Below, piece after piece: positions 47,634 to 64,000 of a DNA stretch of 64,000 bases (positions within the stretch are counted from its first letter, which is position 1; each line of letters starts with the position of its first letter). A program made the position numbers and the translations under genes. This DNA comes from an uncultured Gemmatimonadales bacterium (GTDB taxonomy: Bacteria > Gemmatimonadota > Gemmatimonadetes > Gemmatimonadales > GWC2-71-9): NCBI GenBank assembly GCA_963771275.1, contig CAVYSW010000009.1, positions 320,001 through 384,000 of the forward strand, given 5' to 3'. The notes below the pieces were generated by a model, which made no database searches, was not told the DNA's origin, and worked only from the letters and a program-made list of their open reading frames with translations.

Positions 47634-48827
47634 CTAGTCGAGCACGACGGCCGGCGGGCGGCGCCACCCGGCCCACGCGTCCGGCGCGTCGATCAGGCGC
47701 ACGATCGGGCGGCCCGCGATAGTCTCCTGCTCGACGGCCCACCGCCGGCCGGGCGCCCCGCGCGCCCCCCAAGACCGGCCCAGCACGGCGGCGAACTTCT
47801 CGGCGGCGGGTCCGTCGTCCCAGACGGTCCACCACGCGACCGCGTAGCCGCCGGACGCGCGATACACCGCGAACCGGTCCCCGCCCCAGCCGAGGGCGCC
47901 CGCCGTTGCCACCGCCTCGCTGCCGGTGAGCTGCTGCAGCACGATGCGCGTCTCGAACTCACCCCAATCGTCCTGATAGACGAGCTCGCCGGTCGCGGAC
48001 GGTGCCGGCACGACCCGCACGGACACCGGCTCGTCACCGGCGCGGTACCGCTCCGGATGGAGGATCTGCTCGGTCGAGCGGGGCATGCGCGGTCCATAGG
48101 GCCGGGTGCCGGGATACGCGCTCTCGAACCAGCGCATGAAGTCGGCGCCCGCGAGGTAGGGGAACAGCAGGCCTTCCCGCACGATCAGCGGGGCGGCGGC
48201 GAACACCGGCATGCGCTCCTGAGCCTGACGCACGTTCTCACGCAGATCACGCCAGAAATTGCCGAGCTGGCTCACGCGGGCCGAATCGAACATGGCCGTG
48301 ATCGATGACAGGGTGGCCTGTCCTTCGAGCACGGCCTGGGCGGCCATCTTGCGGTCGTTGTCTCCCTGGCTCTCGAGGATCGAATCGAGCGGGAGGTACT
48401 GTCCCTGGAGCGCATGAACCAGCTCGTGGGCCAGCACAATGCGCACCTGCAGCGGATCCGTCCCGTCGACCACGTACAGGGTGGTCGAGTCGGGATCGTA
48501 GTATCCCACCACCTGCTCCGACAGGACGTCCAGCAGCAGCGCCCGGAAATCGAGCGTGTCGGGAATGACGCCAAACAGCCGGTAGCTCAACGCGATGTGC
48601 GCCATCTGCTCAGGAGGATACTCGGCATCGAGCCGGGCGATGAGATACTGCCGCACCTGGTCGCGGGTCCGGACCGCAAATGCCGGCGGAACGCGGAACG
48701 CGACCCCGACGGAACGCTCGACAGCCGGGATCACGTCGGCGGCCAGGCGACGGACTTCCTGCTCGGTGCTCGGCTGCGGGCGGGCGCAGGAAGAGACTCC
48801 GAGGAGCAGGAGCGGGACATAGCGCAT
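47634..48827 (-). CDS. Zincin-like (HExxH...E) lipoprotein of unknown function
   Basis: Lipobox VSSC, VVGYYDP, LAHELVHALQ, AVLEGQAT, FPYLAG, PRSTEQILHP. Confidence 0.78.
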   Translation of the reverse strand: MRYVPLLLLGVSSCARPQPSTEQEVRRLAADVIPAVERSVGVAFRVPPAFAVRTRDQVRQYLIARLDAEYPPEQMAHIALSYRLFGVIPDTLDFRALLLDVLSEQVVGYYDPDSTTLYVVDGTDPLQVRIVLAHELVHALQGQYLPLDSILESQGDNDRKMAAQAVLEGQATLSSITAMFDSARVSQLGNFWRDLRENVRQAQERMPVFAAAPLIVREGLLFPYLAGADFMRWFESAYPGTRPYGPRMPRSTEQILHPERYRAGDEPVSVRVVPAPSATGELVYQDDWGEFETRIVLQQLTGSEAVATAGALGWGGDRFAVYRASGGYAVAWWTVWDDGPAAEKFAAVLGRSWGARGAPGRRWAVEQETIAGRPIVRLIDAPDAWAGWRRPPAVVLD

Positions 48828-48842
48828 GGGAGGAAACTACAA

Positions 48843-48916
48843 CAATGTCGAATGTCCAATGTTCAATGTCCAATTCCCAAGTGACTTGGAAATTGGACAT
48901 TGGACATTGGACATTC
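48843..48916. repeat. AT-rich palindrome of 7-nt tandem units (CAATGTC)n / (GACATTG)n
   Basis: caatgtc gaatgtc caatgtt caatgtc caattcc caagt g acttg gaaattg gacattg gacattg gacattc. Arms of about 33 bp with two imperfect positions. Confidence 0.92.
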
Positions 48917-48925
48917 TGCGGTTTT

Positions 48926-49717
48926 CTAGTGCTTCCGGATCTCAATCCCGCCGTTCACGGTCTCGAGCCGCAGCTGGCGACCGCCGTCGCCAATCGTGCC
49001 ATGCAGGCGCCGGGGACCGAACCGGCCCTGCACCGTGATGGGAAAATCGGACTCGATGTCCCCGTTGACGGTCGAAGCGTCCAGCACGGCGCTGAGGTTG
49101 GCCGGGACCTGCACCGTGATGCTCCCGTTCACGGTCTTGAACGCCATCGCGCCGGTCCAATCCGCCCGGCCCATCGCCGCGTGGACCGAGCCGTTGACGG
49201 TCTCTGCCTCGACGAGGCCCGCGGCCGTCACGTCCACGTCGCCGTTCACCGTGGTGGCCCGGACGTCACCGCCCACATCGCGCACCTGCACGTCGCCGTT
49301 GACGGTCGCTCCGACGAACGCGACCCGGGCGGGCACCTGGACCGTGAAGTCGACTTCGACGTCGTTGTTGTCCGTGTTGTTCCGCCCGCCGCCCGGCCGG
49401 CACTCGTTGGGCCGGCCGTTCTTCGCGGGATAAACGGCGCAGATCGTGACGCCGCCGTCGTGCGGGACCACCTCGATCTTGACCTCGGACGGGTCGCTCC
49501 GCCGGCCAGACTTCACGGCGGTGACAACCACCTCGTTGCCGCTCGCCGGCGCCGCGTGGATCGCGCCGTTCACGTTGCGGATCTCCAGCGTCTTGCCGGG
49601 CTCGACCCGGCCGCGCCATTCGAAGGTCTCACCCTGGCCCTGCGCCGTACCGCGCCCCTGCGGGGCGAGCGACAGGGCCGCCGCTCCGAGTCCCACGATG
49701 ATCGCAATCGTACGCAT
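48926..49717 (-). CDS. Secreted DUF4097-type beta-strand-repeat protein
   Basis: Signal peptide, many TVNGD/TVNGS repeats, DFTVQVP, LRLETVNGGIEIRK. Confidence 0.88.
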   Translation of the reverse strand: MRTIAIIVGLGAAALSLAPQGRGTAQGQGETFEWRGRVEPGKTLEIRNVNGAIHAAPASGNEVVVTAVKSGRRSDPSEVKIEVVPHDGGVTICAVYPAKNGRPNECRPGGGRNNTDNNDVEVDFTVQVPARVAFVGATVNGDVQVRDVGGDVRATTVNGDVDVTAAGLVEAETVNGSVHAAMGRADWTGAMAFKTVNGSITVQVPANLSAVLDASTVNGDIESDFPITVQGRFGPRRLHGTIGDGGRQLRLETVNGGIEIRKH

Positions 49718-49734
49718 GTCGGCTGCCTCCCGGT

Positions 49735-50583
49735 TTACCGGCGCTCGAGCCGGATCGTGCCGTCAAAGGATTCGAGCTCCACCCGGGCGGCACCCGAGCC
49801 GAGCGTGAACGAGAACCGTCTGCCGGGCCGCACATTCGTGACCTGCACCTTGAACGCCGGATCGGCCTCGAAGGAGCCATCGAACGTGGCGACGCTCACC
49901 GCCGCATTGACGGTTGCGGGCATGCCCACCACGATGTCGCCGCTGTGGGCCGAGAACCCGTACCGCCCACCGTCCTTGATTGCGCCGTGAAAGCTCACGT
50001 CACCGTCCACGGTGCTGACGTCCACATTGGCCGCGTCCACATTCTCCAACGTGACATCGCCGTCGGTGGTTTCCACGGTCAGGTCACCGATCACGTTCGA
50101 GAGCGTGATGTCCCCCTCCACCCCCTCGACCTTGACCGTCCCGCGCGCCCCGTCGATCACGATGTCGCCCTCCACCGTGTGGACCTCGACGGGCCCGCCG
50201 GCCCCGCGAATCGTGACGCCGCCCTCGACGCTCTCCGCGCTGATCGCGCCGGTGACCCCCTCGACCGAGATCTCCGTCTCCTGGCCGCTCAGCTCCAGCG
50301 ACATCGTCCGGGGGACCGTGATCTCGTAGTCCACGAACGCGGGCCCGCCGCGGCGCCGTTGGGCGTCGATCTCGACGACCGAGCCACGCACGTTGATCTG
50401 AATCTCGTCGCGCGTGCCGTGCTCGGCGTGTACGCGCATCTCGTTGCGGTCCCAGGCGGTCACCTTGATGGAGCCCGACTGGTTCTGCAGCTGCAGCCGC
50501 GCCGACGGCGGCACGGCCAGGGTCGTATCGGTCTGCTGCAATGACGACAGCATGAGCAGCGCGACCGGAATGGTGATTGCCAT
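49735..50583 (-). CDS. Secreted DUF4097-type beta-strand-repeat protein
   Basis: Signal peptide then QQTDTT, VDYEITVP, repeats SVEGG/TVEGD/TTDGD/TVDGD, LESFDGTIRL. Confidence 0.88.
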   Translation of the reverse strand: MAITIPVALLMLSSLQQTDTTLAVPPSARLQLQNQSGSIKVTAWDRNEMRVHAEHGTRDEIQINVRGSVVEIDAQRRRGGPAFVDYEITVPRTMSLELSGQETEISVEGVTGAISAESVEGGVTIRGAGGPVEVHTVEGDIVIDGARGTVKVEGVEGDITLSNVIGDLTVETTDGDVTLENVDAANVDVSTVDGDVSFHGAIKDGGRYGFSAHSGDIVVGMPATVNAAVSVATFDGSFEADPAFKVQVTNVRPGRRFSFTLGSGAARVELESFDGTIRLERR

Positions 50584-50600
50584 GAGTCCCTCCCGCTCTA

Positions 50601-51299
50601 TCAGGATGCGCGCGTCGCCAGCACGACCGCGCGCTGCATCAACTCGAGTTTCCGCCGCATCGTCTCGGCGAGATGCGCGTTGAGGTACGCGTCCGACGGA
50701 TCCGCGACAAGCGCCGCCTGGGCCCGGGCGATCGCCCGATCGATCGTGCGCAGGCTCTCCTCGATCACCCGCACCGTCGACGTATCCAGTCGACTCCGAT
50801 TGGCGTCGAGCACCCGCTGGAAATCCGCCACGGCGCCCGCGTAGGCGACACTGCCGGCAAACTGCTGCGCGCCGGCGGACGCGGGTCCCATGCTGGGCCT
50901 GGTGGCCACCGGCGTCGGCCGTCCGCTCACCCCGGTGGGCCCGCCGCGCGGGCCCACCGCCAGCCACATCGCGCCCGCCCCCAGCATCAGCAGCACCCCG
51001 GCCGCCGCCGCGAGCTGGGACATCGTCACGGTGAATGGCCGCCGCCAGCGCAGTGGCCGGGCGCGGACGGGCGCCGTCCCCCCGACCCCAATCCGGGCTG
51101 CGATCCCGGGCCAGAGGTCCCGCTCCGGCGGCCGGTCCGCCAGCGCGCCCGCCCGCATCGTCACCCGCCGCAAGTCGGCCAGCGTCCGCTCGCAATCCGC
51201 GCACTCGCCGAGGTGCCGCTCCAGCTCGTCGCGCTCCGCCGGCGCCAGCTCGCCATCGAGGTACTCCGATAGCCGTGCCGTCCAGTGGTCGCCGGTCAT
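50601..51299 (-). CDS. Zinc-binding (ZAS/zf-HC2) transmembrane anti-sigma factor
   Basis: LSEYLDGEL...HLGECADC, PPERDLWPGI, one TM, helical periplasmic tail. ATGA overlap with the sigma gene. Confidence 0.9.
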   Translation of the reverse strand: MTGDHWTARLSEYLDGELAPAERDELERHLGECADCERTLADLRRVTMRAGALADRPPERDLWPGIAARIGVGGTAPVRARPLRWRRPFTVTMSQLAAAAGVLLMLGAGAMWLAVGPRGGPTGVSGRPTPVATRPSMGPASAGAQQFAGSVAYAGAVADFQRVLDANRSRLDTSTVRVIEESLRTIDRAIARAQAALVADPSDAYLNAHLAETMRRKLELMQRAVVLATRAS

Positions 51300-51880
51300 T
51301 GCGGCCTTCCTTCCGGCGCTCGCGGCTCCAAGTGGGTCCGGAGCAGCATCCGCGCCCGGTGCAGCTGCGCCTTCGATGTCCCTGCGGCGATCCCCATCAG
51401 CTCTCCGATTTCCTCGTGTCGATAGCCCTCGACGTCGTGGAGCACGAACACCTGCCGAGCCCCTTCCGGCAACCGCGCGACCGCGCTCTCGAGGTCGATC
51501 GCCAACTCGGGCCGCGACGGCGCCGCCCGCTGCAGCTCCAGTACGCCGTCCGCCTCGCTGAACCGCGACCGCTCCACCCCGAGCCGGGACCGCCGCGACA
51601 GGATCAGGTTGATCGCGAGCCGGTGCAGCCAGGTCCCGAACGCCGCCTCGCCACGGAAGCTCCCCAGCTTCTCCCACGCCCGGACGAAGACATCCTGCGT
51701 CAACTCGTCCGCGTGGTCGGGCCCGGTCATGCGCCGGGCGAGCGAGTGGATCCGCGCCGAGTGGCTGCGATAGAGCCGCTCGAAGGCATGTGCGTCCCCG
51801 CTCGCTGCGAGGGCAACGTCCACGGCGTCGTCGGGTACGGTCTGGCTCAGAAGGCCCGCTCCAGCGCTCGGCTCGTCCAT
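51296..51880 (-). CDS. ECF RNA polymerase sigma factor
   Basis: GD..AFERLY, DELTQDVFVRAW, FRGEAAFGTWLHRLA.N, VFVLHDVEGYRHEEIG, GTSKAQLHRAR. Confidence 0.95.
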   Translation of the reverse strand: MDEPSAGAGLLSQTVPDDAVDVALAASGDAHAFERLYRSHSARIHSLARRMTGPDHADELTQDVFVRAWEKLGSFRGEAAFGTWLHRLAINLILSRRSRLGVERSRFSEADGVLELQRAAPSRPELAIDLESAVARLPEGARQVFVLHDVEGYRHEEIGELMGIAAGTSKAQLHRARMLLRTHLEPRAPEGRPQ

Positions 51881-51888
51881 GCACTCCG

Positions 51889-51916
51889 TTGGACGAGCGG
51901 ACCGGCCGGATGGTTT
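51889..51916 (-). promoter_or_regulatory. Candidate ECF autoregulatory promoter
   Basis: Minus strand AAAC-N17-CGTCCAA, 8 nt upstream of the sigma ATG. Matches the generic AAC/CGT pattern of ECF promoters. Confidence 0.6.
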
Positions 51917-51926
51917 GGAGACGCGA

Positions 51927-52697
51927 TCACAGCCTCAGGATGCTGGTCCGGTACCACTGCACGACGGCGTCCCCCGCCACGAACGCGACGGCGGCGCCGG
52001 CCGCGAGGAAGATGCCGAAGGGCACCAACTTCTTGGTGCGCAAGGAGATAGGAACGAACACCAAGGTGCCGAGCAGGGCGCCGCCAAAGATCGTGAGCAG
52101 CACGCCCTGCCAACCCACAAAGGCGCCGACCATCGCCATCATCTTGATGTCGCCCCCGCCCATCGCCTCCTTCTTGAACACCTTCTCGCCGGCCCACGCC
52201 ACCGCGTAGAGCAGCGTGAACCCCACGACCGCGCCCACCAGGGCGTTCCCCACGGCCGGGAGGCCGACGGGCAGGGCCAGGGCGAGCCCCAGGGCGAGGC
52301 CTCCCCAGGTGAACTCGTCGGGGATGATGTAGTGGCGTGCGTCGGTGATGGCGATGCCGAGCAACAGCGTGCCGAGCACGGCCGCCGCCGCCGCGTGCCA
52401 GGAGAGACCGTAGCACCCTACCGCGGTCCCCCAGAGCAGCGCGACGAGCGCCTCGATCAGCGGGTACTGCACGGAGATCGGGGCGCGGCACCGGCGGCAC
52501 TTTCCCCCCAGCAGCAGCCATCCGAACACCGGTACGTTGTCATGCCACGGGATGCGCTGCCCGCACGACGGACAGGAGGACGGCGGCCGCACGAGCGATT
52601 GCTCGCGCGGCAGCCGGTAGATGCAGACGTTGAGGAAGCTCCCGAACGTGCTGCCCAGTGCCGCGGCAATGGCCACGATCGGCCATTCAGCCGCCAC
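51927..52697 (-). CDS. pilD: Type IV prepilin peptidase
   Basis: GSFLNVCIYRLP, SSCPSC, GKCRRC..PIS.QYP.IE, ITDA...IPD, MGGGDIKM, VPFG.FL. Confidence 0.93.
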   Translation of the reverse strand: MAAEWPIVAIAAALGSTFGSFLNVCIYRLPREQSLVRPPSSCPSCGQRIPWHDNVPVFGWLLLGGKCRRCRAPISVQYPLIEALVALLWGTAVGCYGLSWHAAAAAVLGTLLLGIAITDARHYIIPDEFTWGGLALGLALALPVGLPAVGNALVGAVVGFTLLYAVAWAGEKVFKKEAMGGGDIKMMAMVGAFVGWQGVLLTIFGGALLGTLVFVPISLRTKKLVPFGIFLAAGAAVAFVAGDAVVQWYRTSILRL

Positions 52698-53457
52698 GGA
52701 CCACCTCGTAGAGCAGGATGCCGGCGGCGACCGCCACGTTGAGGGATTCCGCGCCCCGCGCGAGCGGAATCGCCACCTGCTGGTGGGCCAGGCCGCGCAC
52801 GGCGGCGCCGACCCCCAGCCCCTCGTTGCCCACCACCAGCGCCAGCCGCTCGGGCACGGTTGCCCGCTGGAGCGCGGCACCGTCGGCGGCGGCCACCCAG
52901 ACCGCGAGCCGCTCGCGCCGCACCCAGGCGGCGAGCTCCGCGGGCTCGAGCGGAACCGCCGGCAGACGGAACGTGGCCCCCATCGCGCCGCGCACCACCT
53001 TGGGGTTGGTGAGGTCGGCGGTACCCTTGAGGAGCACGGCGCCGCAGGCACCCAGGGCGAACGCCGTGCGGAGCAGGGTGCCCACGTTGCCGGGGTCCTG
53101 GACCGCGTCCAGCACGAGCACGGGGGCGGTGCGTTGCGGGTGGAGATCCGCCAGCGTCCAGCGGCGCGGCTCCACCACCACGAGCACCCCCTGGGGCGTC
53201 TCCGTCTCCGCGAGGGTGGCGAACGTGCGGGCGGGCACCTCTTCGAGCGGCACGGCGCGGCCCGCGAGCTCCGCCAGGAGCGCGGCCCCGCGAGACGACT
53301 CGGCGAGGTCGCGCGTCACGAGCGCCCCCACGATCGGCACGCGCGCGGCGAGCACTTCCTCGACCAGGCGCACGCCTTCGGCGAGCGTCAGGCCCCGGCG
53401 TCTGCGCGCCCGGCGCTGTTGTAGATTCCGAACCACCGATTGGAGCTGAGAAGTCAT
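52687..53457 (-). CDS. TrmH/SpoU-family RNA methyltransferase
   Basis: [47 protein letters not shown]. Confidence 0.93.
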
Positions 53458-53514
53458 GGACACTCCCGCCGACGCCCAATCATACCACGGCGCGCGGATT
53501 CGGAAAGTCGCCGG

Positions 53515-54318: not shown

Positions 54319-55772
54319 GCCCGTCCCCGATCTTTCCCCGCCCGCCCCGCGCCCGGGGCATCTTCTGCAACCGCACGCTCAACCTGCGGGCGATCCGGGC
54401 AATCGGCTACGACATGGACTACACGCTGGTCCACTACCGGGTGGACGAGTGGGAGCGGCGGGCCTACGAGTACCTGCAGCAGAAGTTCACGGACCTCGGC
54501 TGGCCCCTCGCGGCGCTTGCGTTCGACGCGTCGTTCATCGTGCGCGGCCTGATCATCGACACCGAGCTGGGCAACGTGCTCAAGGCCAACCGCTTCGGCT
54601 ACGTGAAGCGCGCGTATCACGGGACCCGCCAGCTGGATTTCGAGGAGCAGCGCCGCGTGTACGCGCGAACGATCGTGGACCTGAGCGAGCCGCGCTGGGT
54701 GTTCCTCAACACGCTGTTCGCGCTGTCGGAAGCGTGCATGTACGCGCAGCTGGTCGACCTGCTGGACGCGCGCACGCTGCCGGAGGTGCTGGGCTACGCC
54801 GACCTGTACGAGCGCACCCGGCAGCTGATCGACGAGGCCCACGTCGAGGGCCTGCTCAAGGCGGACATCCTGGCGGACCCCGACCGGTTCGTCGAGCCCG
54901 ACCCCGAGGCCGCGCTGGCGCTGCTCGACCAGATCAAGGCGGGCAAGCGCCTGCTGCTGATCACCAACTCCGAGTGGCCGTACACCCGCGCCCTGATGCG
55001 CCACGCGTTCGACCGGTTTCTGCCGGGCGGGATGACTTGGCGCGATCTGTTCGAGGTGGTGATCGTGCAGGCCCGCAAGCCGGACTTCTTTTCCAGCCGG
55101 AGCCCGGTGTTCGAGATCGTGAACGAGGAGGGCCTGCTGCGGCCCGCCCTGGGCCTGACGGCCGGCGGGGCCTACGTCGGCGGCAACGCCGGGCTCGTGG
55201 AGCACCACCTTGGCGTGTCGGGCGACCAAATCCTGTTCGTCGGCGATCACCTGTTCGCGGACGTGCACGTTTCCAAGAACGTGCTGCGGTGGCGGACCGC
55301 GCTCGTGCTCCGCGAGCTCGAGGCCGACCTGCTGGCGGAGGAGGCGTTCGCGGACGACCTGGCGCGGCTGGAGCGGCTGATGGCCCGCAAGGAGGAGCTG
55401 GAATTCGACGTCTGCCAGATCCGCCTGCAGCTGCAGCGCGCGCGGGCCCGCTACGGGCCCAAGCCGACCCGCTCGCCCGAGAGTCTCGAGCCGGACCTCG
55501 CGGCCCTGCGCGACCGGCTGGAGGCGCTGGACGAGGAAATCGCACCGCTCGCGGCGCGCGCCACCGAGATCAGCAATGCGCGCTGGGGGCAGCTGATGCG
55601 CGCCGGAAACGACAAGAGCCACCTGGCACGGCAGGTGGAGCGGTACGCGGACATCTACCTGTCGCGCGTCTCCAACTTCCTGTACCACACGCCGTTCGCG
55701 TTCCTGCGCTCGCCGCGCGGGAGCCTGCCGCACGACGCCGGCAGCGCGGGCGCCGAGGAACCCGCGCCTTAG
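54315..55772 (+). CDS. HAD-IG family 5'-nucleotidase (cN-II/NT5C2-like)
   Basis: IFCNRTLNL, GYDMDYTL, LITNS, ARKP.FF, FVGDH.FAD, C-terminal coiled coil, RYADIY.SRVSN. Confidence 0.92.
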   Translation: MSPSPIFPRPPRARGIFCNRTLNLRAIRAIGYDMDYTLVHYRVDEWERRAYEYLQQKFTDLGWPLAALAFDASFIVRGLIIDTELGNVLKANRFGYVKRAYHGTRQLDFEEQRRVYARTIVDLSEPRWVFLNTLFALSEACMYAQLVDLLDARTLPEVLGYADLYERTRQLIDEAHVEGLLKADILADPDRFVEPDPEAALALLDQIKAGKRLLLITNSEWPYTRALMRHAFDRFLPGGMTWRDLFEVVIVQARKPDFFSSRSPVFEIVNEEGLLRPALGLTAGGAYVGGNAGLVEHHLGVSGDQILFVGDHLFADVHVSKNVLRWRTALVLRELEADLLAEEAFADDLARLERLMARKEELEFDVCQIRLQLQRARARYGPKPTRSPESLEPDLAALRDRLEALDEEIAPLAARATEISNARWGQLMRAGNDKSHLARQVERYADIYLSRVSNFLYHTPFAFLRSPRGSLPHDAGSAGAEEPAP

Positions 55773-55781
55773 GCGCGTCCC

Positions 55782-56288
55782 GTGGACCTGCTCGTCGTGC
55801 GCCACGCGATCGCGGGCGATCGCCTCGACTGGAGCCGGTCGGGGAAGCCCGACAGCCAGCGTCCCGTCAGCGCGGAGGGGCGCAGGAAGATGGCGGCGGC
55901 CGCGCGCGGCCTCGCGGCCGTGGTGCCGCACCTGGACGTGCTCGCGACGAGCCCGTACCTCCGCGCCCGCCAGACCGCCGAGATCCTGCACACGCAGTAC
56001 GGGAAGCCCGAGCCGACCGAGGTCGCGGCGCTGGCCCACGGCGGGTCCCCGGCGGAGCTGCTCGAGTGGCTCGGGCGCGAGGGGAAGCGCGACGTGGTGG
56101 CGATCGTCGGGCATGAGCCCGACCTCGGCGCGCTGATCGGCCGGCTGCTCACCGGCGGACCCGCGGACGTGGTCCGGCTCGGGAAGGGCGGCGCCTGCCT
56201 GCTCTCGTTCACCCGCACGCCCGGCCCGGGCGCGGCGGAGCTCACCTGGGTGCTCACGCCCAAGCTGCTCCGCCGGCTGGGGAAGTAA
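55782..56288 (+). CDS. sixA: SixA-like phosphohistidine phosphatase
   Basis: VVRHAIA, D..RP.S.EG, TSPYLRARQTAE, VGHEPDL, LGKGG. Confidence 0.88.
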   Translation: MDLLVVRHAIAGDRLDWSRSGKPDSQRPVSAEGRRKMAAAARGLAAVVPHLDVLATSPYLRARQTAEILHTQYGKPEPTEVAALAHGGSPAELLEWLGREGKRDVVAIVGHEPDLGALIGRLLTGGPADVVRLGKGGACLLSFTRTPGPGAAELTWVLTPKLLRRLGK

Positions 56289-56289
56289 C

Positions 56290-57726
56290 GTGCCGCCGCG
56301 CGCGCCGCTGCTCGATCTGCCGGTCCGCGAGGGCGTCGCCCGCATCGCGCGGCGCTATCTCGACGAGGCGGTGTCCGGCCTCGACCGGCTGCGCGACCGC
56401 CGGGACACCGAGGCACTCCACGATTTCCGGGTCGCCGTGCGTCGCCTGCGGAGCCTGCTCCGGGCGTACCGCCGCTGGATGGGACGTGCCGGCGGGAAGA
56501 AGGTGCGACGCCGGTTGCGGGACTTGGGCCAGGCGACCAACGCCGGCCGCGACGCGGAAGTCCAGGTAGTCTGGCTCGAGGTACAGCGGGCCGCCCTCGC
56601 CCGGCGCGAGCGGAGCGGGCTCAACTGGCTGTTGCGGCGGCTGCGCGCCGTGAAGCGCGACAGCTATCGCGCGGCGCGGAAACGCGTCAAGGCGGGCCTG
56701 CACCGGTCCGAGCTGCTGCTGCGCCACCGACTCGACGAGCCGGCCGGTCAGGGGGCCACACGCTTCCGGGCGGCGTTCGCCGGGCTGCTCGTCGAGCAGG
56801 TCGCGGATCTGGAGGGCAAGCTGGCGGCGATCGCCGGCGCGGACGACGAGGAGCAGGCTCACGAAGCACGCATCAGCGCCAAGCGACTCCGCTACCTCGT
56901 GGAACCGGTGCGCTACGAGCTGCCGGGTGGCCGCCGCATCGTCGGGCGGCTCAAGCGCGTGCAGGACCTGCTGGGGACGCTGCACGACATGCATGTGCTC
57001 GCCGGGTCGCTCGCCACGGTGGTCGAGGAGGCGGCGCGCGAGAAGGCCCGGCGGATGCACGGGCTCGCGCTGGCGGGCGACGACCGGACGCTCGGCCGGG
57101 AGCGCCGGCGCGACGAGCGCATCGGGCTGGTCACCCTCGCGGCCCGTGCGCGCGGCGACCGCGACCGGGTGTTTGCCGCGCTCGACCGCGGATGGCTGCG
57201 CGGGCGGGCCCGGGCACTGTTCCAGGAGCTCAGGACGCGGGCGGACAGCCTGGCCATGCCGGCGCCGGAGGACAGCGAGATCGAGCGCAAGTTCCTGCTT
57301 GCGGCGCTGCCGCCGGAGGCCGCCGCCGCGCCCGTCGAGGAGATCGAGCAGGGATGGCTCCCCGGCGAGCGGCTGCGCGAGCGGCTGCGCCGGGTGGTGG
57401 ACGCCGATGGGGAGCGGTTCTATCGGACCGTGAAGCTGGGCAGCGGGGTGCAGCGGCTCGAGCTGGACGAGCAGACGTCAGCCGAGCTGTTCGGGGCGCT
57501 GTGGCCGCACACGGCGGGCTGCCGCGTCGCGAAGCGCCGCTACCGGGTGCACGACGGGGCGTTGACGTGGGAGATCGACGAGTTCCGCGACCGCGACCTG
57601 CTGCTCGCCGAGGTGGAGCTGTCCGATCCGGCTATGGCCGTGACCATCCCCGCCTGGCTCGCGCCGCATCTCGTGCGCGAGGTGACCGGCGATCCGGCCT
57701 ACGTGAACCTCAACCTGGCCGGCTGA
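56290..57726 (+). CDS. CHAD (polyphosphate-binding) + CYTH triphosphatase fusion
   Basis: CHAD motifs LHDFRVAVRRLRS, RDAEV, HEARISAKRLRY, QDLLGTLHD. CYTH motifs EIERKFL, IEQG, WEIDEF, LAEVEL, REVTGDPAY.N. Confidence 0.9.
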   Translation: MPPRAPLLDLPVREGVARIARRYLDEAVSGLDRLRDRRDTEALHDFRVAVRRLRSLLRAYRRWMGRAGGKKVRRRLRDLGQATNAGRDAEVQVVWLEVQRAALARRERSGLNWLLRRLRAVKRDSYRAARKRVKAGLHRSELLLRHRLDEPAGQGATRFRAAFAGLLVEQVADLEGKLAAIAGADDEEQAHEARISAKRLRYLVEPVRYELPGGRRIVGRLKRVQDLLGTLHDMHVLAGSLATVVEEAAREKARRMHGLALAGDDRTLGRERRRDERIGLVTLAARARGDRDRVFAALDRGWLRGRARALFQELRTRADSLAMPAPEDSEIERKFLLAALPPEAAAAPVEEIEQGWLPGERLRERLRRVVDADGERFYRTVKLGSGVQRLELDEQTSAELFGALWPHTAGCRVAKRRYRVHDGALTWEIDEFRDRDLLLAEVELSDPAMAVTIPAWLAPHLVREVTGDPAYVNLNLAG

Positions 57727-57798
57727 CGCTCAGGCCGGCTCGCGGTCGGTCCGCCACCGCGAGATCGCCATCCAGCCTCCCCGCGCGCGTCCTCAGCG

Positions 57799-59409
57799 CT
57801 ACCCGGCGCGGGCCCCGCGCACGACGCGCAGCACCGGCCGCGCCACGCCAGCCGCCGCGAGCCAACGGACCGCGAGTCGCAGGTCGAACACCCGCTCGAA
57901 CAGGCCCGCCTTGCGCCGGGCGTCCCACAGCTCCACCGACGGCTCCTGCTCCGCCTCGAGCGTGAGCCGCAGCCGGCCGCGGCGGACCTCGCAGCGGACG
58001 GCGCGCACCAGGTTCTGATGGCTGCGGTTCAGGGCCACCGCCAAGCGCAGCAGGCCGGCGAGCCGGCGCGCGAGCGCCCGGTCCTCGCGCGGCAGGCGCG
58101 CGAAGGTGGGATGCGCACGCTTGGGGTACGCGCGCCGGTGATAGCGCGCGACGTTGGCGATCAGCTCGATCTCCCGCGCGGAATAGCCCGGCAGATCGCT
58201 GTGCATGATCAGGTGGTACGCGTGCTTGTGGTGCTTCGCGTGGTTCACCAGGAACCCGATGTCGTGCAGCAGGGCCGCGGCGACGAGCAGCTCCCGTGAG
58301 GCGGCGGGCAGCCCGGCCCGCCGCCGCAAGCCGTCGAACAGCTGCCCCGCGAGCTCGGCCACGTGCGCGCCGTGGCGCTCGTTCGAGCGACAGGTGCGTG
58401 CGAACCGGCGCACCGCGTCGAGCCGCTCCGGCGGCACCGCCGGCGACGTCGGGGCGGCGAGGCCCAGGTCCGCCATCATCGACAGCAGGAGGCCGTCGCG
58501 CACGCCGCCTTCGTTGACGAGGATCTGGCGGCAGCCGAGGTACTTCGCGAGCCGGGCGACGACGGCGGCGCCCGCCACGAGAATGTCGGCTCGCTGGGGC
58601 GGCACGCCGGGAATCTGGCGTCGCTGGGACTCTGGGAGCTCCAGCAGCCACGCGAGCAGGCGCGTGGCTTCCGCGCGGGTGACGGCGTAGCCGTGGGGAT
58701 TGCCCTCGCGCCCCTCATGCTCGTAGCGCATCATCGCGCCGAGCGCCGAGAACGTCCCGCCGCTCCCGACCATCACCTCGACGGTGAACGGCGGCTTGCC
58801 GATCTCGTCCGCCAGCGCCCGGTCGATCGCGCGGCGCAGCGCTTTCCAGTGCTTCGTGCGCAGCGGATCCGACCGGACGTAGCGCTCGGTCAGCCGCACC
58901 GCTCCCAACGGCAGCGAATGGACCTGGTCCACGACTGAGCCGGCCGAGAGCACGACCTCGAGGCTTCCGCCGCCGATGTCCGCCACCGCGACCGAACGGC
59001 CCTCGAGATTGAACCGGCGAATCGCGCTCGCGAAGGCGAGGCGCGCCTCTTCGTCCGGCGAGATGACTTCGACCCGCACGCGATGCCGCTTCCACGCCTC
59101 GCGCCGGAACGCCGCTCCGTTCTCCGCCTCCCGCACGGCGCTCGTCGCCGCGGCGCGCAGCTCGGTCACGCCGAACCCGTCGGCGATGGCTTTCATCGTC
59201 CCGATCGCGCCGAGCGAGGTGGCCACGGCGGCCTCGGAGAGGCGTCCCGTGCGCGCCAGGCCGGCGCCGAGGCGCGTCATCTCGCGCTCCTCGTCGAGCA
59301 CGCGATACGTGCCGTCGGGCTGAACCTCGGCCACGATCAGCCGGATCGAGTTGGTCCCGATGTCGATCGCGCCGAGGCGCGGCGCGTGGGAGGCGCGGTC
59401 GGGGCTCAC
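57799..59409 (-). CDS. ppx: Exopolyphosphatase / GppA-family phosphatase with C-terminal HD domain
   Basis: AIDIGTNSIRL, ATSAVREAEN, EEARL, DIGGGSLE, SLPLG, GSGGT, RADIL, GVRDG, LLHDIG. Confidence 0.93.
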   Translation of the reverse strand: MSPDRASHAPRLGAIDIGTNSIRLIVAEVQPDGTYRVLDEEREMTRLGAGLARTGRLSEAAVATSLGAIGTMKAIADGFGVTELRAAATSAVREAENGAAFRREAWKRHRVRVEVISPDEEARLAFASAIRRFNLEGRSVAVADIGGGSLEVVLSAGSVVDQVHSLPLGAVRLTERYVRSDPLRTKHWKALRRAIDRALADEIGKPPFTVEVMVGSGGTFSALGAMMRYEHEGREGNPHGYAVTRAEATRLLAWLLELPESQRRQIPGVPPQRADILVAGAAVVARLAKYLGCRQILVNEGGVRDGLLLSMMADLGLAAPTSPAVPPERLDAVRRFARTCRSNERHGAHVAELAGQLFDGLRRRAGLPAASRELLVAAALLHDIGFLVNHAKHHKHAYHLIMHSDLPGYSAREIELIANVARYHRRAYPKRAHPTFARLPREDRALARRLAGLLRLAVALNRSHQNLVRAVRCEVRRGRLRLTLEAEQEPSVELWDARRKAGLFERVFDLRLAVRWLAAAGVARPVLRVVRGARAG

Positions 59410-59416
59410 GGCCGCG

Positions 59417-60854
59417 CTACCGGATCACCTGCCCCACGACCCGCTTGGCGAGGTTCCGGTTCATGAAGCGGCCATCGGCATCGAGCTGGTTGATGATCGC
59501 CAGCTCGTCGGCCGAGACGGGGCCGGGGTAGCGCTGAGCGAATTCCTGCGGTGTCATGGACCGGTCGAGCCGGACGATCGTAATGTGCCACGGCTGCACG
59601 CTCAGCGCGGTCTGGTCGGTGAGCGGCCGGAACGTCCGCATCGCGTCGACGACCACCGCCTCGCTGCCGGGCCAGGAGGCCGCCGTCCCGTAGCCCAGCA
59701 CCTGCAGCACGAGCCCGCCCTGCGCAACGAACATCACCCGCCCTTTCACGGTGCCGTCCTGCAGGGCCGCACTGAAGCCGCCGCCGGACGCCTGCAGCCC
59801 GTTGACCGTCAGCGCGGCCGGCGTCCCCGTGACACCCTGCTCGCTGAAGAACTGCCGCGCCGCCTCGCCGGGCGTGCCCGCCTCTGCGCCCGAGATGCGG
59901 AGGATCACGTCCTGGTTGGCGTTGGCCGCGAGCACGGCGGCTTTCTGGTTCGCCGTCGTCCAGCCCGTCGGGAAGGTGAACTCGAACCGGAGATCGGGGT
60001 GGAGGAACCGCGTGCCGCGGAAGAAGCCTTCCCTGGGGTTGGGGCCGAACATCAGATCGTCGAGGCGGCGCAGATAGGGGTCGCGGTCGACGACCGCCGC
60101 GGCGAGCTCGTCGGGCGTGAGCGTGGCGGCCCGCTCGACGGCCTTCTCCTCCCGGTTCGCGGGATCGGGGTGGGTGGAGGCCCACTCCGGCACCCGGGCC
60201 CCGGCGGCGGCGCTCACGCGGCTTAGCTCGCGGAACATCTCCGCCATCTCCCGCGGGTCGTAGTTGGTGCGCCGGACGTAGCGGAACCCCAGCTCGTCGG
60301 CCTGGGACTCGTCGTCGCGGCTGAACTTGAGAAACAGGAGGCCCAAGCGCCTGCTGCGCCGCGCCGGCATAGCGCGCCAGCTCGGGCTTGAGCACGACCC
60401 CCACGGCGAGCCCCACCTGGGCGAGCTGCTGCTGCGTCATCTGGACCACGGTGTGCCGCGCCGTCACGTGGCCGATCTCGTGCCCCAGCACCCCGGCCAG
60501 CTGCGCCTCCGAGTTCATGTGGGCAAGCAGGCCGCGCGTAACGTAGATGTAGCCGCCCGGCAGCGCGAACGCGTTCACCGCCGGATCGTCCACCAGCCGG
60601 AACGCCCACTCGAGCTGCGGCCGCTCGGACACGGCCGCGAGCTTCTTGCCGAGCGCCTCCACGTAGCGTCCGAGCGCCGTGTCGGGATACACCCCCATCT
60701 CCGCGGACACTTGCTGGTCGTATTGCCGCCCCATGGCGATTTCCTGGCTCTCGCTCACGAGCACCAGCTCTCTCCGGCCCGTGGCGGGATTGACGGAGCA
60801 GCGCGTGACGACAAGGCACAGGAAGGCAGGAACGAAGACGCTGCGGATGCGCAT
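59417..60854 (-). CDS. M48-family zinc metalloprotease lipoprotein (one extra base near 60342-60346, probable sequencing error)
   Basis: C-SVNPATG, NAFALPGGYIYVTRGL and GHEIGHV in one frame; FSRDDESQAD and STHP in the next. Junction reads GCG CTT G GGC CTC CTG. Confidence 0.88.
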
Positions 60855-60882
60855 GGGGCAGTCCCCCTGAGGCGGAACGAAC

Positions 60883-60923
60883 GTCGGTCGGGATCGACTG
60901 AAACGTAGTCGACCCCGACCGAC
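60883..60923 (-). terminator. 17-bp hairpin between the HEAT genes and the M48 gene
   Basis: Minus strand GTCGGTCGGGGTCGACT-acgtttc-AGTCGATCCCGACCGAC with one G-U pair, followed by GTTCGTT. Confidence 0.6.
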
Positions 60924-60943
60924 CCGTCACATCGACGACCCGC

Positions 60944-61693
60944 TCAGCGGCCGGTGAGAATCTCCTCGAAGAACGCCACCGCCCGTGGATCTCCGGTCTG
61001 CCCGAGCCAGAACATCGCCGACTTGCGGACGTCCGGGTCGCGGTGCTCGCGCGCGATCCGGATCAGCAGGGGAACCGCCTCGTCGCCCTTGTGCTGCGAG
61101 AGCGCGAACACGGCCTGCTTCTGGATCTCCCGGTCGGTGGTGTCGTCGATCAGTCCGCCGAGCGCTCGGGTGATCTCGGCGCCCGCGGCCTGGCCGAGCC
61201 AGAACACGGCGCTCTTGCGCGTTTCCCGCGGGATCGCGGCGTCCCGCCCCAGCTGGACGAGCTGGGGCCAGACGATCGCGCTGTCGGCCAGGGTCGCCGG
61301 AAACACCAGCTTGTCACCCACCCCCCCGGGAACGCGGGGGGCGAGGTCGAGGAGGTACTTGGCGGCCTCGGACGCCCCGACCGTGCCGAGATCGGTCACC
61401 CCGGCTTCCGCCGCGCGCCACCGCCCGCCGACGTACGTGTCCACCTTCACGAGCTTCCCACCGCGCCAGTCGAGCACCACGCGCGCCGGGCCGTGCTGAC
61501 AGTCGCTCTCCCAGTCAGCGGTCGACCGCACGATGTTGATGTTGCGCCCGTTGCCGCAGACCTCGGGCCGGGTCGCGTAGCTCATGCGCACCGTCCCGTC
61601 CCGCACCCGCTCCACCCGCTGCGCGAGCGACTGGGCCTGCGCGGCGGACGCCGCCAGCAAGACGAGCAGCCCCCCCATCACGGTCGTTCTCAT
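60944..61693 (-). CDS. Secreted HEAT-repeat protein (short)
   Basis: Signal peptide AQA-Q, disulfide-like Cys pair, repeats RKSAVFWLGQ / QKQAVFALSQ / RKSAMFWLGQ. Confidence 0.85.
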   Translation of the reverse strand: MRTTVMGGLLVLLAASAAQAQSLAQRVERVRDGTVRMSYATRPEVCGNGRNINIVRSTADWESDCQHGPARVVLDWRGGKLVKVDTYVGGRWRAAEAGVTDLGTVGASEAAKYLLDLAPRVPGGVGDKLVFPATLADSAIVWPQLVQLGRDAAIPRETRKSAVFWLGQAAGAEITRALGGLIDDTTDREIQKQAVFALSQHKGDEAVPLLIRIAREHRDPDVRKSAMFWLGQTGDPRAVAFFEEILTGR

Positions 61694-61721
61694 GCTCTCC
61701 CCCTCCGCCCCTCTGCGGCCG

Positions 61722-63182
61722 TCACTTGTTGATCACCTCCAGCAGGAACTGCGCGACGCGCGGATCGTGCGACTGTCCGAGCCAGAAGATCGCCTTGCTG
61801 CGCAGCTCGCGGTTCGGCTCGGCGCGCGCGATGCTCATCAGCTTGTCCACGGCCGCCGCGTCCTTGCTCTGCGAGAACCCGAAGATCAGCTGTTCCTTGA
61901 TTTCCGTGTCGCTTGCCCTGTCGTACAGCCGGGCCAGGTCGGCGAACGGGACCGCTTTGCTCTGCGCGGCCCAGAACAGCGCCGTCTTGCGGAGCTCGAC
62001 GGGACTATTGGCATCGAGCGCCACGTCCAGCAACCAGCGGCCGTTTTCCTCCATGGGATTCTGCGCGAGCGCGAACAGCACCTTCTCCTTGAGCACCGTG
62101 CTCGAGGTCTTGGCGTAGAAGTCCTTGAGATACTGCGCGTTGCCGGCGGACTGCCCCATCCAGAAGATGATGTTCTCCTTGATGTCGTCCGGCGTGTCGG
62201 CGCGCTCGAGGTGCGCCCGGAGCGCACGACCCGCCGCCGAGTCCTTGATCTGACCGAGCGCGAAGATCGTCTTCTCCTGAAGCTCGCGATCGATGGTCGA
62301 CCGCAGAATCGAGTCCAGGGCGCCCACGGCCTCCGAGGAGGGAACCTGGGAGAGCCAGAACACCGCGTTCTCGCGAACTTCGGGGTCCGGGTCGCTCCGC
62401 ACGGCGTCCAGCAGGATCTTCGCCGTCTCGGGCGACTTCTTCTGCGAGACCAGGAACACCGCCTGGCGCCGCAGGCACACCGACCCCTCGTCGCGCCGCT
62501 GCAGGACCTGGCGCAGGATCGGGATCGCCTGCTCCGCCTGCATCTGCAGCAGCGCATTGAGGGCGATCAGGCGGTCGTCGTCCTCGTCGCTGCAGCCGCC
62601 CTGGGAGTGCCCCACACCACGGCCTACTCCGGCGCCGCGTCCCACCCCCACCCCCACCCCCACCCCACCCCTGGGGGCGGCAGGGACGGCGGGAGCGGCA
62701 GGGACCGCCGCCGCGGCAGGCGGGGCAGCGGCGCTCGCCACCGCCGCCGCCGCGTCCGCATCGCCGAGGCGCGCCAGCTCGCCCTGCACCTGGATCTTGA
62801 GGCCCCGCGCGTCGCGCGCGGTGCGCGCGTCGGGATGCCGCTCCAGCTGCCGGTCGAGCAGCACCAGTGCGCCACGCAGGTCGGCCGTCGAGGCCAGCCT
62901 GCTCATCGCAAACGCCTGCCAGTAGTAGGAATCCGCCGCGTAGCCCGACCGGGGATAGCGGTCGCGCAGCGCCTGGAACTCGCGCGCCGCAGCCCGGTAG
63001 TCGCCGCGGTTCAGCGCGCCGCGGGCGGAGCGGTAGAGCGAGTCGCCGGGGTCCTGCGCAAGCCACGGGGCCGGGGCTTCGATCGCGGGCTGTTGGGCCG
63101 CGGGTTGAACCGGTTCCGTCGCCGTGCCCAGCAGCAGGGCGCTCAGCGCCCCCATCGCCAACATCGTGTGGAACGTCGTCAT
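61722..63182 (-). CDS. Secreted TPR + HEAT-repeat protein (long)
   Basis: Signal peptide, TPR-like SLYRSARGALNRGDY..AA...YYWQAFA, Ala/Pro/Gly linker, about 8 A.FWL.Q / .IFAL.Q repeats. Confidence 0.85.
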   Translation of the reverse strand: MTTFHTMLAMGALSALLLGTATEPVQPAAQQPAIEAPAPWLAQDPGDSLYRSARGALNRGDYRAAAREFQALRDRYPRSGYAADSYYWQAFAMSRLASTADLRGALVLLDRQLERHPDARTARDARGLKIQVQGELARLGDADAAAAVASAAAPPAAAAVPAAPAVPAAPRGGVGVGVGVGRGAGVGRGVGHSQGGCSDEDDDRLIALNALLQMQAEQAIPILRQVLQRRDEGSVCLRRQAVFLVSQKKSPETAKILLDAVRSDPDPEVRENAVFWLSQVPSSEAVGALDSILRSTIDRELQEKTIFALGQIKDSAAGRALRAHLERADTPDDIKENIIFWMGQSAGNAQYLKDFYAKTSSTVLKEKVLFALAQNPMEENGRWLLDVALDANSPVELRKTALFWAAQSKAVPFADLARLYDRASDTEIKEQLIFGFSQSKDAAAVDKLMSIARAEPNRELRSKAIFWLGQSHDPRVAQFLLEVINK

Positions 63183-63835
63183 CAGAGTGTCCCTCCCATG
63201 GCCAGGCGCTCGGCGCGGCTCGGCAGGTTCGCACGCAGCCGCAGCAGCACCGATCGATCCTTGATTCCCTGTTCGATGAAGCCGAAGTCCAGGGCATCGC
63301 CCGCCTCGGCGTACGCCGCGATCTGGACCAGCACCAGCTCGATGTCGTCGAGCAACGGCCCGAGCGCGACATCCCGCCCCGCCGGCGAGTCCCTGAGCAG
63401 TCGGGTCCGCTGCAACAGCTGCCGGACGGGCTGCTCGATCTCGCCAATCCGATTGGGTTCTCGTCCCGCCTCGGTCGAAAACACCGAGAGGAACGTCTCG
63501 ACGCGGCTCAGGTGCTCGCCGGCCGCGAGGCGGTACGCCGCCGGGAGTTGCGCGGGGGCGGGCCCGGTCGCCGAGGGCGGGGCCACCGGAGCCGTCCCAC
63601 CCCGGGCCGTGTAGCGTCCGATGGCCACTCCCATCGCCAGCGTGGCCGCGAGCCCGACCCCCCATGCCACCCAGCGCAGCGGCGAGCGGGTCTGCCCGCC
63701 TGGCGCCCGGCGGCGCCGTCGGGCACGCTCGCTCCCAATCCGGTCCCACAACTCGGCCCGCGGCGTCTCTGGGGGCCGGTTGTAGCTCTCCGCCAGATTC
63801 CGGATCATGGCGTCCGTCTTCTCATCGTCCGTCAT
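63182..63835 (-). CDS. Putative transmembrane anti-sigma factor (no ZAS motif)
   Basis: Coupled (ATGA) to the ECF sigma gene. [13 protein letters not shown], one TM, helical periplasmic domain. Confidence 0.72.
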
Positions 63836-63999
63836 ACGGCCCACTCTCCCGCGAAATCCACCAGCGCGTCGCGCAACCGCGCCCGGGCCCGAAACAGCTG
63901 GGCTTTCGAGGTACCGACCGGCACGCCCAGCGCCCCACCGATCTCCTCATGTGTGTAGCCCTCGACGTCGTGCATCACGAACACCATCCGCAGCTTGGG
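63832..63999 (-). CDS. ECF sigma factor, C-terminal region 4 (5'-truncated by window edge)
   Basis: My translation of the minus strand: [55 protein letters not shown]. Not in the ORF track. Confidence 0.9.
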
Positions 64000-64000
64000 C

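Follow-up and report, generated by a model that had tools for sequence, protein, structure and literature searches.

Extracytoplasmic function (ECF) sigma factors form a major family of bacterial signalling proteins, and most of their groups have no known input. Groups in which DUF4097 "adhesins" or HEAT proteins are encoded beside the anti-sigma factor are known from genome context only. A 64,000-nucleotide (nt) stretch of an uncultured Gemmatimonadales bacterium (the window, G000:C9:320001-384000, from a 3.86-Mb genome of 11 contigs and 72% G+C) carries two gene sets of this kind, here called modules A and B, each followed by a hairpin and by a gene for a lipoprotein peptidase. The locus raises the question of where each signalling system ends and how it might sense its signal. 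A sequence-only reading had proposed two parallel cassettes that include the peptidases, in which related sigma/anti-sigma cores use interchangeable periplasmic repeat proteins as sensors or anti-sigma protectors and the protease, tuned by the hairpin, may be the effector or the site-1 protease.

Our analysis indicates that the region probably consists of two paralogous, self-contained four-gene ECF signalling modules, each made up of a sigma factor, a single-pass anti-sigma factor and two exported repeat proteins, with the peptidases outside. The genes and features listed in the sequence-only reading are all present in the sequence, with the corrections described below. Its modules of sigma factor, anti-sigma factor and solenoid pair stood; the parts that it gave to the protease and to hairpin tuning did not. 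The sensor or protector role that it assigned to the solenoids is plausible. What the locus adds is a pair of modules with clean four-gene boundaries and their own promoters, together with a controlled docking prediction that is open to direct experiment. If the conspicuous proteases and the palindrome are bystanders, as we consider probable, effort on them can be saved.

Gene content and conservation of the two modules

Gene models were set by codon-position G+C and domain matches (Table 1). Both sigma factors contain sigma-2 and sigma-4 regions only and exceed the superfamily cut-off, which places them among the ECF (group IV) factors. Module A is located between a prepilin peptidase (A24) gene and the gene of the HELVH lipoprotein, and the start of its anti-sigma gene overlaps the stop of its sigma gene. 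Anti-sigma A begins with a zinc-binding anti-sigma (ZAS) domain, followed by one transmembrane helix; a variable linker then leads to a periplasmic helical domain at the C-terminus, which is conserved (residues ~146-232). The H-x3-C-x2-C motif that defines the ZAS domain is invariant (H29, C33 and C36; n = 16 orthologues), and the profile of the protein matches RslA (3hug_B) at 8e-6, with further matches to DdvA, RsiW and RsrA. A Pfam search returned no RskA-family match at E <= 0.1. The hydrophobic N-terminus of toastrack 1 is kept among its orthologues, and toastrack 2 is the best conserved gene of the module, with a mean column identity of 60% among 16 orthologues. Both toastracks have export-type N-termini, so their compartment matches that needed for contact with the periplasmic domain of anti-sigma A.

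Module B repeats this order with different parts. Most of sigma factor B lies past the end of the window, which is one of the corrections. Anti-sigma B has a short N-terminal domain, one transmembrane helix, a linker and a conserved periplasmic helical domain of its own; zf-HC2 was not matched, and the H-x3-C-x2-C zinc motif was not found in 21 orthologues. The first of the two HEAT proteins has a YbgF/BamD-like TPR head as well, another correction. Within both modules, neighbouring genes overlap or are 17-28 nt apart, while the gap to the peptidase gene measures 89-98 nt and holds a hairpin.

The two cores are related, in part. Sigma factors A and B are 45% identical and are mutual closest paralogues among the ~13 ECF genes of the genome. 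The region-4 string that the sequence-only reading described as common to both sigma factors is present, as is the P..R.(D/E)LW..I string common to both anti-sigma factors. When the profiles of anti-sigma A (16 orthologues) and B (21 orthologues) were compared, 58 columns aligned, covering the PPxxDLW..I segment and the transmembrane helix (probability 66.5%, E 5e-5), and the periplasmic domains gave no alignment. The N-domains are also unlike, the zinc motif occurring in A only. Separate N-domains and unaligned periplasmic domains indicate that sensors have not been swapped onto one common anti-sigma factor, and the idea of related cores with interchangeable sensors does not hold in that form. 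Judging from these alignments, the outer domain is particular to each anti-sigma factor and moves together with the matching pair of repeat proteins.

Conservation of the gene sets was investigated in related genomes. The genome tallies for HELVH, M48 and HEAT proteins take in G020, G213 and G188, and the fetched loci all come from the other genomes. A search with toastrack 2 returned 31 loci, labelled Gemmatimonadota and Acidobacteriota, and all four module A genes were present in 12 of these. Among 251 genomes of the phylum, 118 had homologues of the small HEAT protein (E <= 1e-20), and each of the 20 loci fetched from across the phylum kept the four-gene order of module B (19 complete, one cut by a contig end). 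The part of the proposed neighbourhood that comprises sigma factor, anti-sigma factor and repeat-protein pair is thus conserved.

The peptidase genes behaved differently. HELVH was matched in 58 of the 61 genomes of the order, G000 included, and in every one of 20 fetched loci the gene stood just 3' of the A24 gene on the same strand. The space between them was empty in six loci, held a single gene of ~1.2 kb in nine (L027, L029, L030, L033-L036, L038 and L039) and held module A in five (two genomes of the same genus as G000, G014, G019 and G031). The single gene encodes an AAA+ ATPase (AAA and AAA_lid_9) in all seven of the nine that were scanned. Since the slot can be empty or hold either an AAA+ ATPase or module A, it is a variable insertion site. 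HELVH itself, present once per genome and nearly universal, is tied to the prepilin peptidase gene. It stays there with or without module A, and follows module A in only one (L074) of the nine module A loci whose downstream sequence reaches 1.5 kb or more, which removes it from the cassette. Downstream of the other eight were mutually unrelated genes: a convergent Zn_peptidase gene, a tricorn-type S41 protease gene, Omp85/PD40, PepSY_TM, DinB, an amino-acid permease gene, a small open reading frame (ORF) followed by a redoxin gene, and a DDAH-like gene; the Zn_peptidase and S41 genes stand beside module A in L076 and L078. In G026, the module A locus was judged to be on contig C1, and HELVH is on a different contig.

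Homologues of the C-terminal piece of the M48 peptidase were found in 55 of 61 relatives. Among 20 fetched M48 loci, module B lay upstream in five (four of the same genus, two cut by contig ends, and G031) and not in 14, and one was too short to judge. A second M48 paralogue is encoded elsewhere on the same contig of G000, and some of the 14 may be its orthologues; in G019 and G036, however, there are positional M48 orthologues without module B. Viewed from the module, M48 was adjacent in one of the 20 module B loci and 1.5 kb away in another, and it was the first called gene downstream in 2 of 18, the remainder being varied. In 3 of 18 loci (L119, L121 and L122), the first gene after module B encodes a large DUF5916 (+CBM9) protein, and a DUF5916-type gene was also seen in L075, beyond further toastrack genes and ~1.9 kb downstream of a toastrack-2 relative. 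A general link between modules and peptidases was considered and dropped, since only 2 of 18 module B loci had a peptidase gene directly after the module. M48 can thus not be counted as a cassette member, and synteny of the proteases with the cassettes, the lack of which was one half of the refuting condition set in the sequence-only reading, was absent from most other loci examined. Because the peptidases are mostly missing beside the modules elsewhere, the conserved units are four genes long and the peptidases are lineage-specific neighbours.

Table 1. Positions and supporting matches of the modules, their boundaries and the adjacent genes (window coordinates).
Feature	Position	Strand	Evidence or remark
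HELVH lipoprotein, putative gluzincin-type metallopeptidase	47634-48827	-	conserved neighbour, not module member
Palindrome of (AATGTCC)n/(GGACATT)n heptamers	~48844-48916	.	7 matches vs 0.07 expected
Toastrack/DUF4097 protein 2, 263 amino acids (aa), signal peptide	48926-49717	-	PF13349 3.7e-10, 40 bits vs cut-off 22.9
Toastrack/DUF4097 protein 1, 282 aa, N-terminal export signal	49735-50583	-	PF13349 68.8 bits vs cut-off 22.9
Anti-sigma A, 232 aa	50601-51299	-	zf-HC2 E 2.9e-10, 40.5 bits vs cut-off 22.2
ECF sigma factor A, 194 aa	51296-51880	-	Pfam Sigma70_r2 2.8e-15, r4_2 6e-16; TIGR02937 93.4 bits vs cut-off 42.9
Predicted sigma-A-dependent (autoregulatory) promoter, AACCAT-N14-CGTCCAA	51889-51915	-	in the 46-nt gap between A24 and sigma genes
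Prepilin peptidase (A24)	51927-52700	-	Pfam A24_N_bact 1.4e-33, Peptidase_A24 7.9e-21
Polyphosphate-related cluster: histidine phosphatase-like gene, CHAD-domain protein, Ppx/GppA	55782-59409		between modules A and B
CHAD-domain protein	56290-57726	+	polyphosphate-related cluster
Ppx/GppA	57799-59409	-	polyphosphate-related cluster
M48 (HEIGH) lipoprotein peptidase, ~300-aa C-terminal domain	59417-60854	-	PF01435 88 bits N piece, 43.7 bits C piece
17-bp hairpin between module B and M48 gene	60883-60923	.	92-nt spacer z -4.05
Exported HEAT-repeat protein, 249 aa	60944-61693	-	HEAT_2 1.3e-18
Exported TPR (YbgF/BamD-like) + HEAT-repeat protein, 486 aa	61722-63182	-	HEAT_2 4.2e-18, YfiO 4.1e-8, tol_pal_ybgF 1.4e-11
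Anti-sigma B, 220 aa	63182-63844	-	no Pfam family; alignment of 21 orthologues
ECF sigma factor B, C-terminal 55 codons in window	63832-64000; gene runs to 64374 (window-equivalent)	-	Sigma70_r2 + r4_2; TIGR02937 103.6 bits vs cut-off 42.9

Promoters, hairpins and neighbouring genes

Candidate promoters were found directly upstream of both sigma genes. The motif CAACCWT-N14-(C/A)(G/T)TCCAA is conserved 5' of the sigma A gene in G000 and five orthologous loci, and the motif AACCCTTT-N11-GTGTC, at 64416-64439 and outside the window, is conserved among the orthologues of sigma B. Strict patterns built from six (A) and four (B) sequences each occurred once in the 3.86-Mb genome, before the respective operon, and neither was found before either peptidase gene in this genome search. 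A scan for consensus promoters and terminators returned nothing at the module boundaries. The location of the sigma A promoter inside the short gap between the A24 and sigma genes suggests that module A entered an A24-HELVH pair that was already in place.

The two hairpins differ in their distribution over the genome. The heptamer palindrome after module A folds at -49.6 kcal/mol (z -9.8 against shuffled sequence) and almost fills the 98-nt spacer, ending ~14 nt before the HELVH start codon. Heptamer arrays are dispersed in G000 in ~30 clusters, at least a dozen of which are visibly two-armed; a stricter regular expression for two-armed palindromes undercounts them (5 of 16 arms), and the cluster listing was used instead. 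The palindrome is thus one copy of a generic, genome-wide repeat family and not a device of the cassette, which is another correction. The dispersed palindromes have a low G+C content, are built from (N)AATGNN heptamers, in many cases form long hairpins and are concentrated on contig C9, with nine clusters in C9:179720-242065. In the near-identical run X2 the module A palindrome has one 7-nt unit fewer, and an analogous palindrome of AGGGCAG heptamers occupies the same gene junction in G004 (L023).

Between the HEAT gene of module B and the M48 gene is an 89-nt spacer with a hairpin of unique sequence, the only near-exact copies in the genome being its own two arms. This hairpin, too, folds much better than shuffled sequence (Table 1). 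A repeat family like that of module A was considered for this hairpin and rejected on the same result, with no other genome copy found. Hairpins of unrelated sequence occur at the orthologous junctions, and several of these are followed, by eye, by T-runs like those of intrinsic terminators. The hairpins mark the module boundary and are probably terminators or insulators.

By sequence, HELVH is a putative gluzincin-type peptidase with a poorly matched family. Residues H134, E135, H138 and E168 are invariant among 32 orthologues. The protein scored 90.1 bits against Hvo_1808_fam (cut-off 200) and 21.4 against DUF6782 (cut-off 27), reaching neither. Its AlphaFold2 model has a pLDDT of 91.5, and the best match in the PDB was 3cmn, an uncharacterised "putative hydrolase" (E 8.8e-4), followed by weak matches to M9 collagenase domains.

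The M48 peptidase has a lipoprotein-type N-terminus followed by xVNPATGRRE. Contrary to the sequence-only reading, its gene occupies two frames in the window, a further correction, with an N piece from 60854 to ~60390 and a C piece from 60370 to 59417, and the break is explained by one extra base at ~60341-60348 in this assembly. In two public DNA runs with near-identical sequence, a contig of run X1 (9084 nt, 74 other differences) has one base fewer at 60348, and a contig of run X2 (1015 nt, three other differences) has one base fewer at 60345; deleting either base restores a single continuous frame. The orthologue in G001 is a 507-aa open frame. A similar break was seen in the essential gene ffh (SRP54; 44332-45643, minus strand), which is in two frames with the break near 45029-45049, the N piece covering SRP54_N and GTPase profile positions 1-103 and the C piece positions 113-195 and the SRP_SPB domain. 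Because the X1 and X2 contigs and G001 are intact and ffh is broken likewise, we read the M48 break, and that in ffh, as probable assembly indel errors, a rare real variant being less likely. The ffh break bears on the trust to be placed in other frameshifts of this genome. Among the remaining neighbours between the modules, a plus-strand gene at ~54449-55772 had no Pfam match.

Predicted docking and the proposed sensing mechanism

The contact between anti-sigma A and the toastracks was modelled as a three-chain complex in which anti-sigma A (residues 140-232) was the scored partner of toastrack 1 (22-282) and toastrack 2 (28-263), with a 16-row alignment for each. The complex scored 0.62 (runs of 0.64, 0.62 and 0.61) against 0.08 for the best control, with at least 95% of contacts common to the runs and a partner pLDDT of at least 74. 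In calibration, 116 of 157 solved complexes reached the score mark, as did 2 of 215 mismatched pairs; these counts are only a rough guide for a three-chain job with self-made alignments. All of the confident contacts were with toastrack 1, on successive rungs ~18 residues apart from 101-102 to 271-274, and were made by anti-sigma A residues 172-227. Replacing toastrack 1 dropped the score from 0.62 to 0.08; toastrack 2 had no confident contact with anti-sigma A in the model. The model supports, and does not show, binding of the periplasmic helices of anti-sigma A to toastrack 1, and it favours the earlier suggestion that the repeat proteins act as sensors or protectors.

These predictions can be combined into a possible mechanism. 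Each module would be driven by its own sigma-type promoter directly upstream of the sigma gene, with its genes packed tightly or coupled in translation. On the cytoplasmic side, the N-domain of the anti-sigma factor, a ZAS domain in A and a zinc-free domain in B, would hold the sigma factor, as expected from the family. On the far side of the membrane, the C-terminal helical domain of anti-sigma A is predicted to dock along one beta-sheet face of the toastrack encoded at +2, and by analogy anti-sigma B may dock on the HEAT proteins. Outside the cytoplasm, the repeat protein would then sense together with the anti-sigma factor or lock it, much as RseB does with RseA. An envelope signal that disturbs the complex would free or destabilise the anti-sigma factor, and the sigma factor would raise expression of its own four-gene operon. 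HELVH and M48 would be conserved housekeeping envelope enzymes of the order, with the modules placed upstream of them in one sub-lineage and module A sitting inside the older prepilin peptidase-HELVH pair. We put forward only tentatively, and with less than even confidence, that the exported solenoids are dedicated extracytoplasmic co-anti-sigma factors, with a helical hairpin lying on a toastrack sheet in A and presumably on a HEAT alpha-solenoid in B, so that signals are read as occupancy of, or damage to, the surface. If true, this would provide a concrete, testable sensing mechanism for ECF272-, ECF231- and ECF277-type groups of Gemmatimonadota and Acidobacteriota, and a periplasmic partner for the toastrack domain.

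Several points weigh against the four-gene modules and the mechanism built on them. The docking rests on one model with shallow alignments, for module A only, and a wider regulon could be missed by strict promoter patterns resting on so few sequences. Adjacency of module A and HELVH is seen in several genera (the genus of G000, G014, G019, G031, L074 and L082), and that of module B and M48 in the genus of G000, G031 and G261; in G014 the HEAT and M48 matches are ~600 bp apart on one contig. The transcription units are themselves predictions from gene layout. A scan for rho-independent terminators found no site at either G000 hairpin, the T-run being absent, and with the spacer filled by the palindrome, transcription of HELVH must either cross it or start inside the toastrack gene, so that read-through from module A into HELVH is plausible.

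Such read-through could be an accident of operon extension, in which module A was inserted into an older A24-HELVH operon and HELVH is co-expressed outside the signalling logic. The six relatives in which HELVH directly follows the A24 gene after a short gap agree with this, as do the close spacing in G000 (46 nt from A24 to the start of the sigma gene, with the palindrome ending just before HELVH) and the invariance of the HELVH active-site residues in module-bearing genomes too. A hairpin as stable as the palindrome could nevertheless block read-through, and other module-bearing genomes have spacers of 110-290 nt, which could hold a promoter. We regard accidental co-expression as a real possibility, though on balance a doubtful one.

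The repeat proteins might instead be outputs, that is, envelope-protective or scaffold proteins similar to LiaG or LiaX, made by a sigma factor whose regulon is mainly its own operon. The strict promoter motifs, found only before each operon, fit this view, and the toastracks do match the LiaG and LiaX equivalogs, if weakly (34-36 bits against cut-offs of 285-350, which are not reached). The best conserved gene of module A, toastrack 2, is also the one with no confident contact in the model. Against an output role stand the complex model, which passes its controls for toastrack 1, and the anti-sigma periplasmic domain, which is conserved and module-specific. A subgroup of ECF277, moreover, is described as having HEAT repeats fused to the anti-sigma factor itself, which points to sensing (PMC7826278). 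On this evidence we consider a purely output role unlikely.

A five-gene system, with the HExxH lipoprotein as site-1 protease on the anti-sigma factor or as main effector and its dose set by partial termination at the hairpin, is very improbable. In its favour, the peptidase genes are on the strand of the modules and only 89-98 nt away, a separate promoter would not fit between the palindrome and the HELVH start, several genera have the genes side by side, and both products are by sequence exported zinc peptidases with conserved active-site residues. Yet HELVH is matched in 58 of 61 relatives with module A upstream in only 5 of 20 loci, and eight of the nine module A loci that could be assessed have no HELVH downstream. 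In 18 of the 20 module B loci, M48 was not found within ~3.2-3.7 kb, and genomes such as G019, G023 and G018 have M48 homologues but no HEAT-protein match. The sigma promoter motifs are missing before the peptidase genes, and the hairpin sequences are unconserved.

Comparison with known systems

The sequence-only reading knew of no characterised system with this layout. As regards characterisation this agrees with the ECF classification of Casas-Pastor 2021 (PMC7826278), although the layout itself is catalogued there as ECF272, ECF231 and ECF277. The layout has been described from genome context, and its mechanism is uncharacterised. In our literature search, no paper paired toastrack or toast-rack with anti-sigma or sigma-factor terms, and DUF4097 searched with ECF returned Listeria papers, none on this layout. 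NCBIfam equivalogs matched by the two sigma factors were generic and all far below their cut-offs.

ECF272, found in Gammaproteobacteria and the genus Gemmatimonas, is described as having a one-transmembrane RskA-like anti-sigma factor at +1 and a DUF4097 "putative adhesin" at +2, and is listed as uncharacterised (Casas-Pastor 2021, PMC7826278 Supplementary Text S2). Compared by gene layout and description, module A has the same order of ECF sigma factor, single-transmembrane anti-sigma factor at +1 and DUF4097 protein at +2, an order kept in 12 loci, and its CAACCWT / CGTCCAA motif resembles the promoter predicted for the group, TTTAAACCTTT / CG(A|T)CTAA (PMC7826278). It differs from that description in the zinc-finger N-domain of its anti-sigma factor, which has no RskA-like match, and in having two DUF4097 genes. 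ECF231, for which a ZAS anti-sigma factor with a periplasmic HEAT repeat and two adhesins are described (PMC7826278), shares with module A the combination of a ZAS anti-sigma factor and two "adhesins".

For module B the closest description is that of ECF277, a mainly acidobacterial group with zinc-finger anti-sigma factors, HEAT proteins at +2 and +3 in subgroup s5 and PDZ proteins at +2 in sister subgroups (PMC7826278). The HEAT proteins at +2 and +3 are suggested by its authors to be part of the sensing domain (PMC7826278). By layout and description, ECF277s5 agrees with module B in the HEAT proteins at +2 and +3 (20 of 20 module B loci) and differs in the anti-sigma factor, that of module B being without a zinc finger. 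The sister subgroups with PDZ at +2 resemble two paralogous modules of G000, L063 (G000:C3:119400-128400) and L064 (G000:C3:711300-720300), which encode the next-closest sigma paralogues (37-41% identity), each with a small anti-sigma-like protein and a PDZ-domain protein at +2. Convergent peptidase genes stand beside these PDZ modules, M28 in L063 and M14 in L064. Further ECF modules with other accessory domains were observed on contigs C3 and C10 (L065, L069 and L071); one has a LiaF_C/Toast_rack_N protein at +3, and two have post-sigma proteins bearing CBM48/AMPK glycogen-binding modules, as described for ECF278.

Toastrack sheets have been proposed as protein-docking surfaces, for intracellular domains, in a study that also mentions an operonic link of toastrack to a sigma factor (Ravi et al. 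2024, PMC11237479). The Lia/Psp toastracks treated there (LiaG, LiaX, YvlB and VraT) share with module A the PF13349 domain and a proposed flat docking surface near the membrane (PMC11237479). Unlike them, predicted to be intracellular and found with two-component systems or PspC, the module A pair carries export signals and is encoded in an ECF operon. The M48 gene resembles BepA, LoiP and YcaL in its M48 domain with HEIGH and its lipoprotein-type N-terminus, and differs from BepA in its score (96.8 bits against the BepA cut-off of 570) and in a different C-terminal domain of ~300 aa in place of the BepA TPR.

In the sigma-E system of Escherichia coli, the periplasmic protein RseB, encoded after the anti-sigma factor RseA, binds the periplasmic domain of RseA and gates its inactivation. 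RseB is not a solenoid and has no sequence or fold relation to the repeat proteins of modules A and B, and the proteases DegS and RseP are encoded elsewhere. The likeness is one of function: in the proposed mechanism, a protein encoded after the anti-sigma factor would work in the same way as RseB, through a binding that the model of module A predicts.

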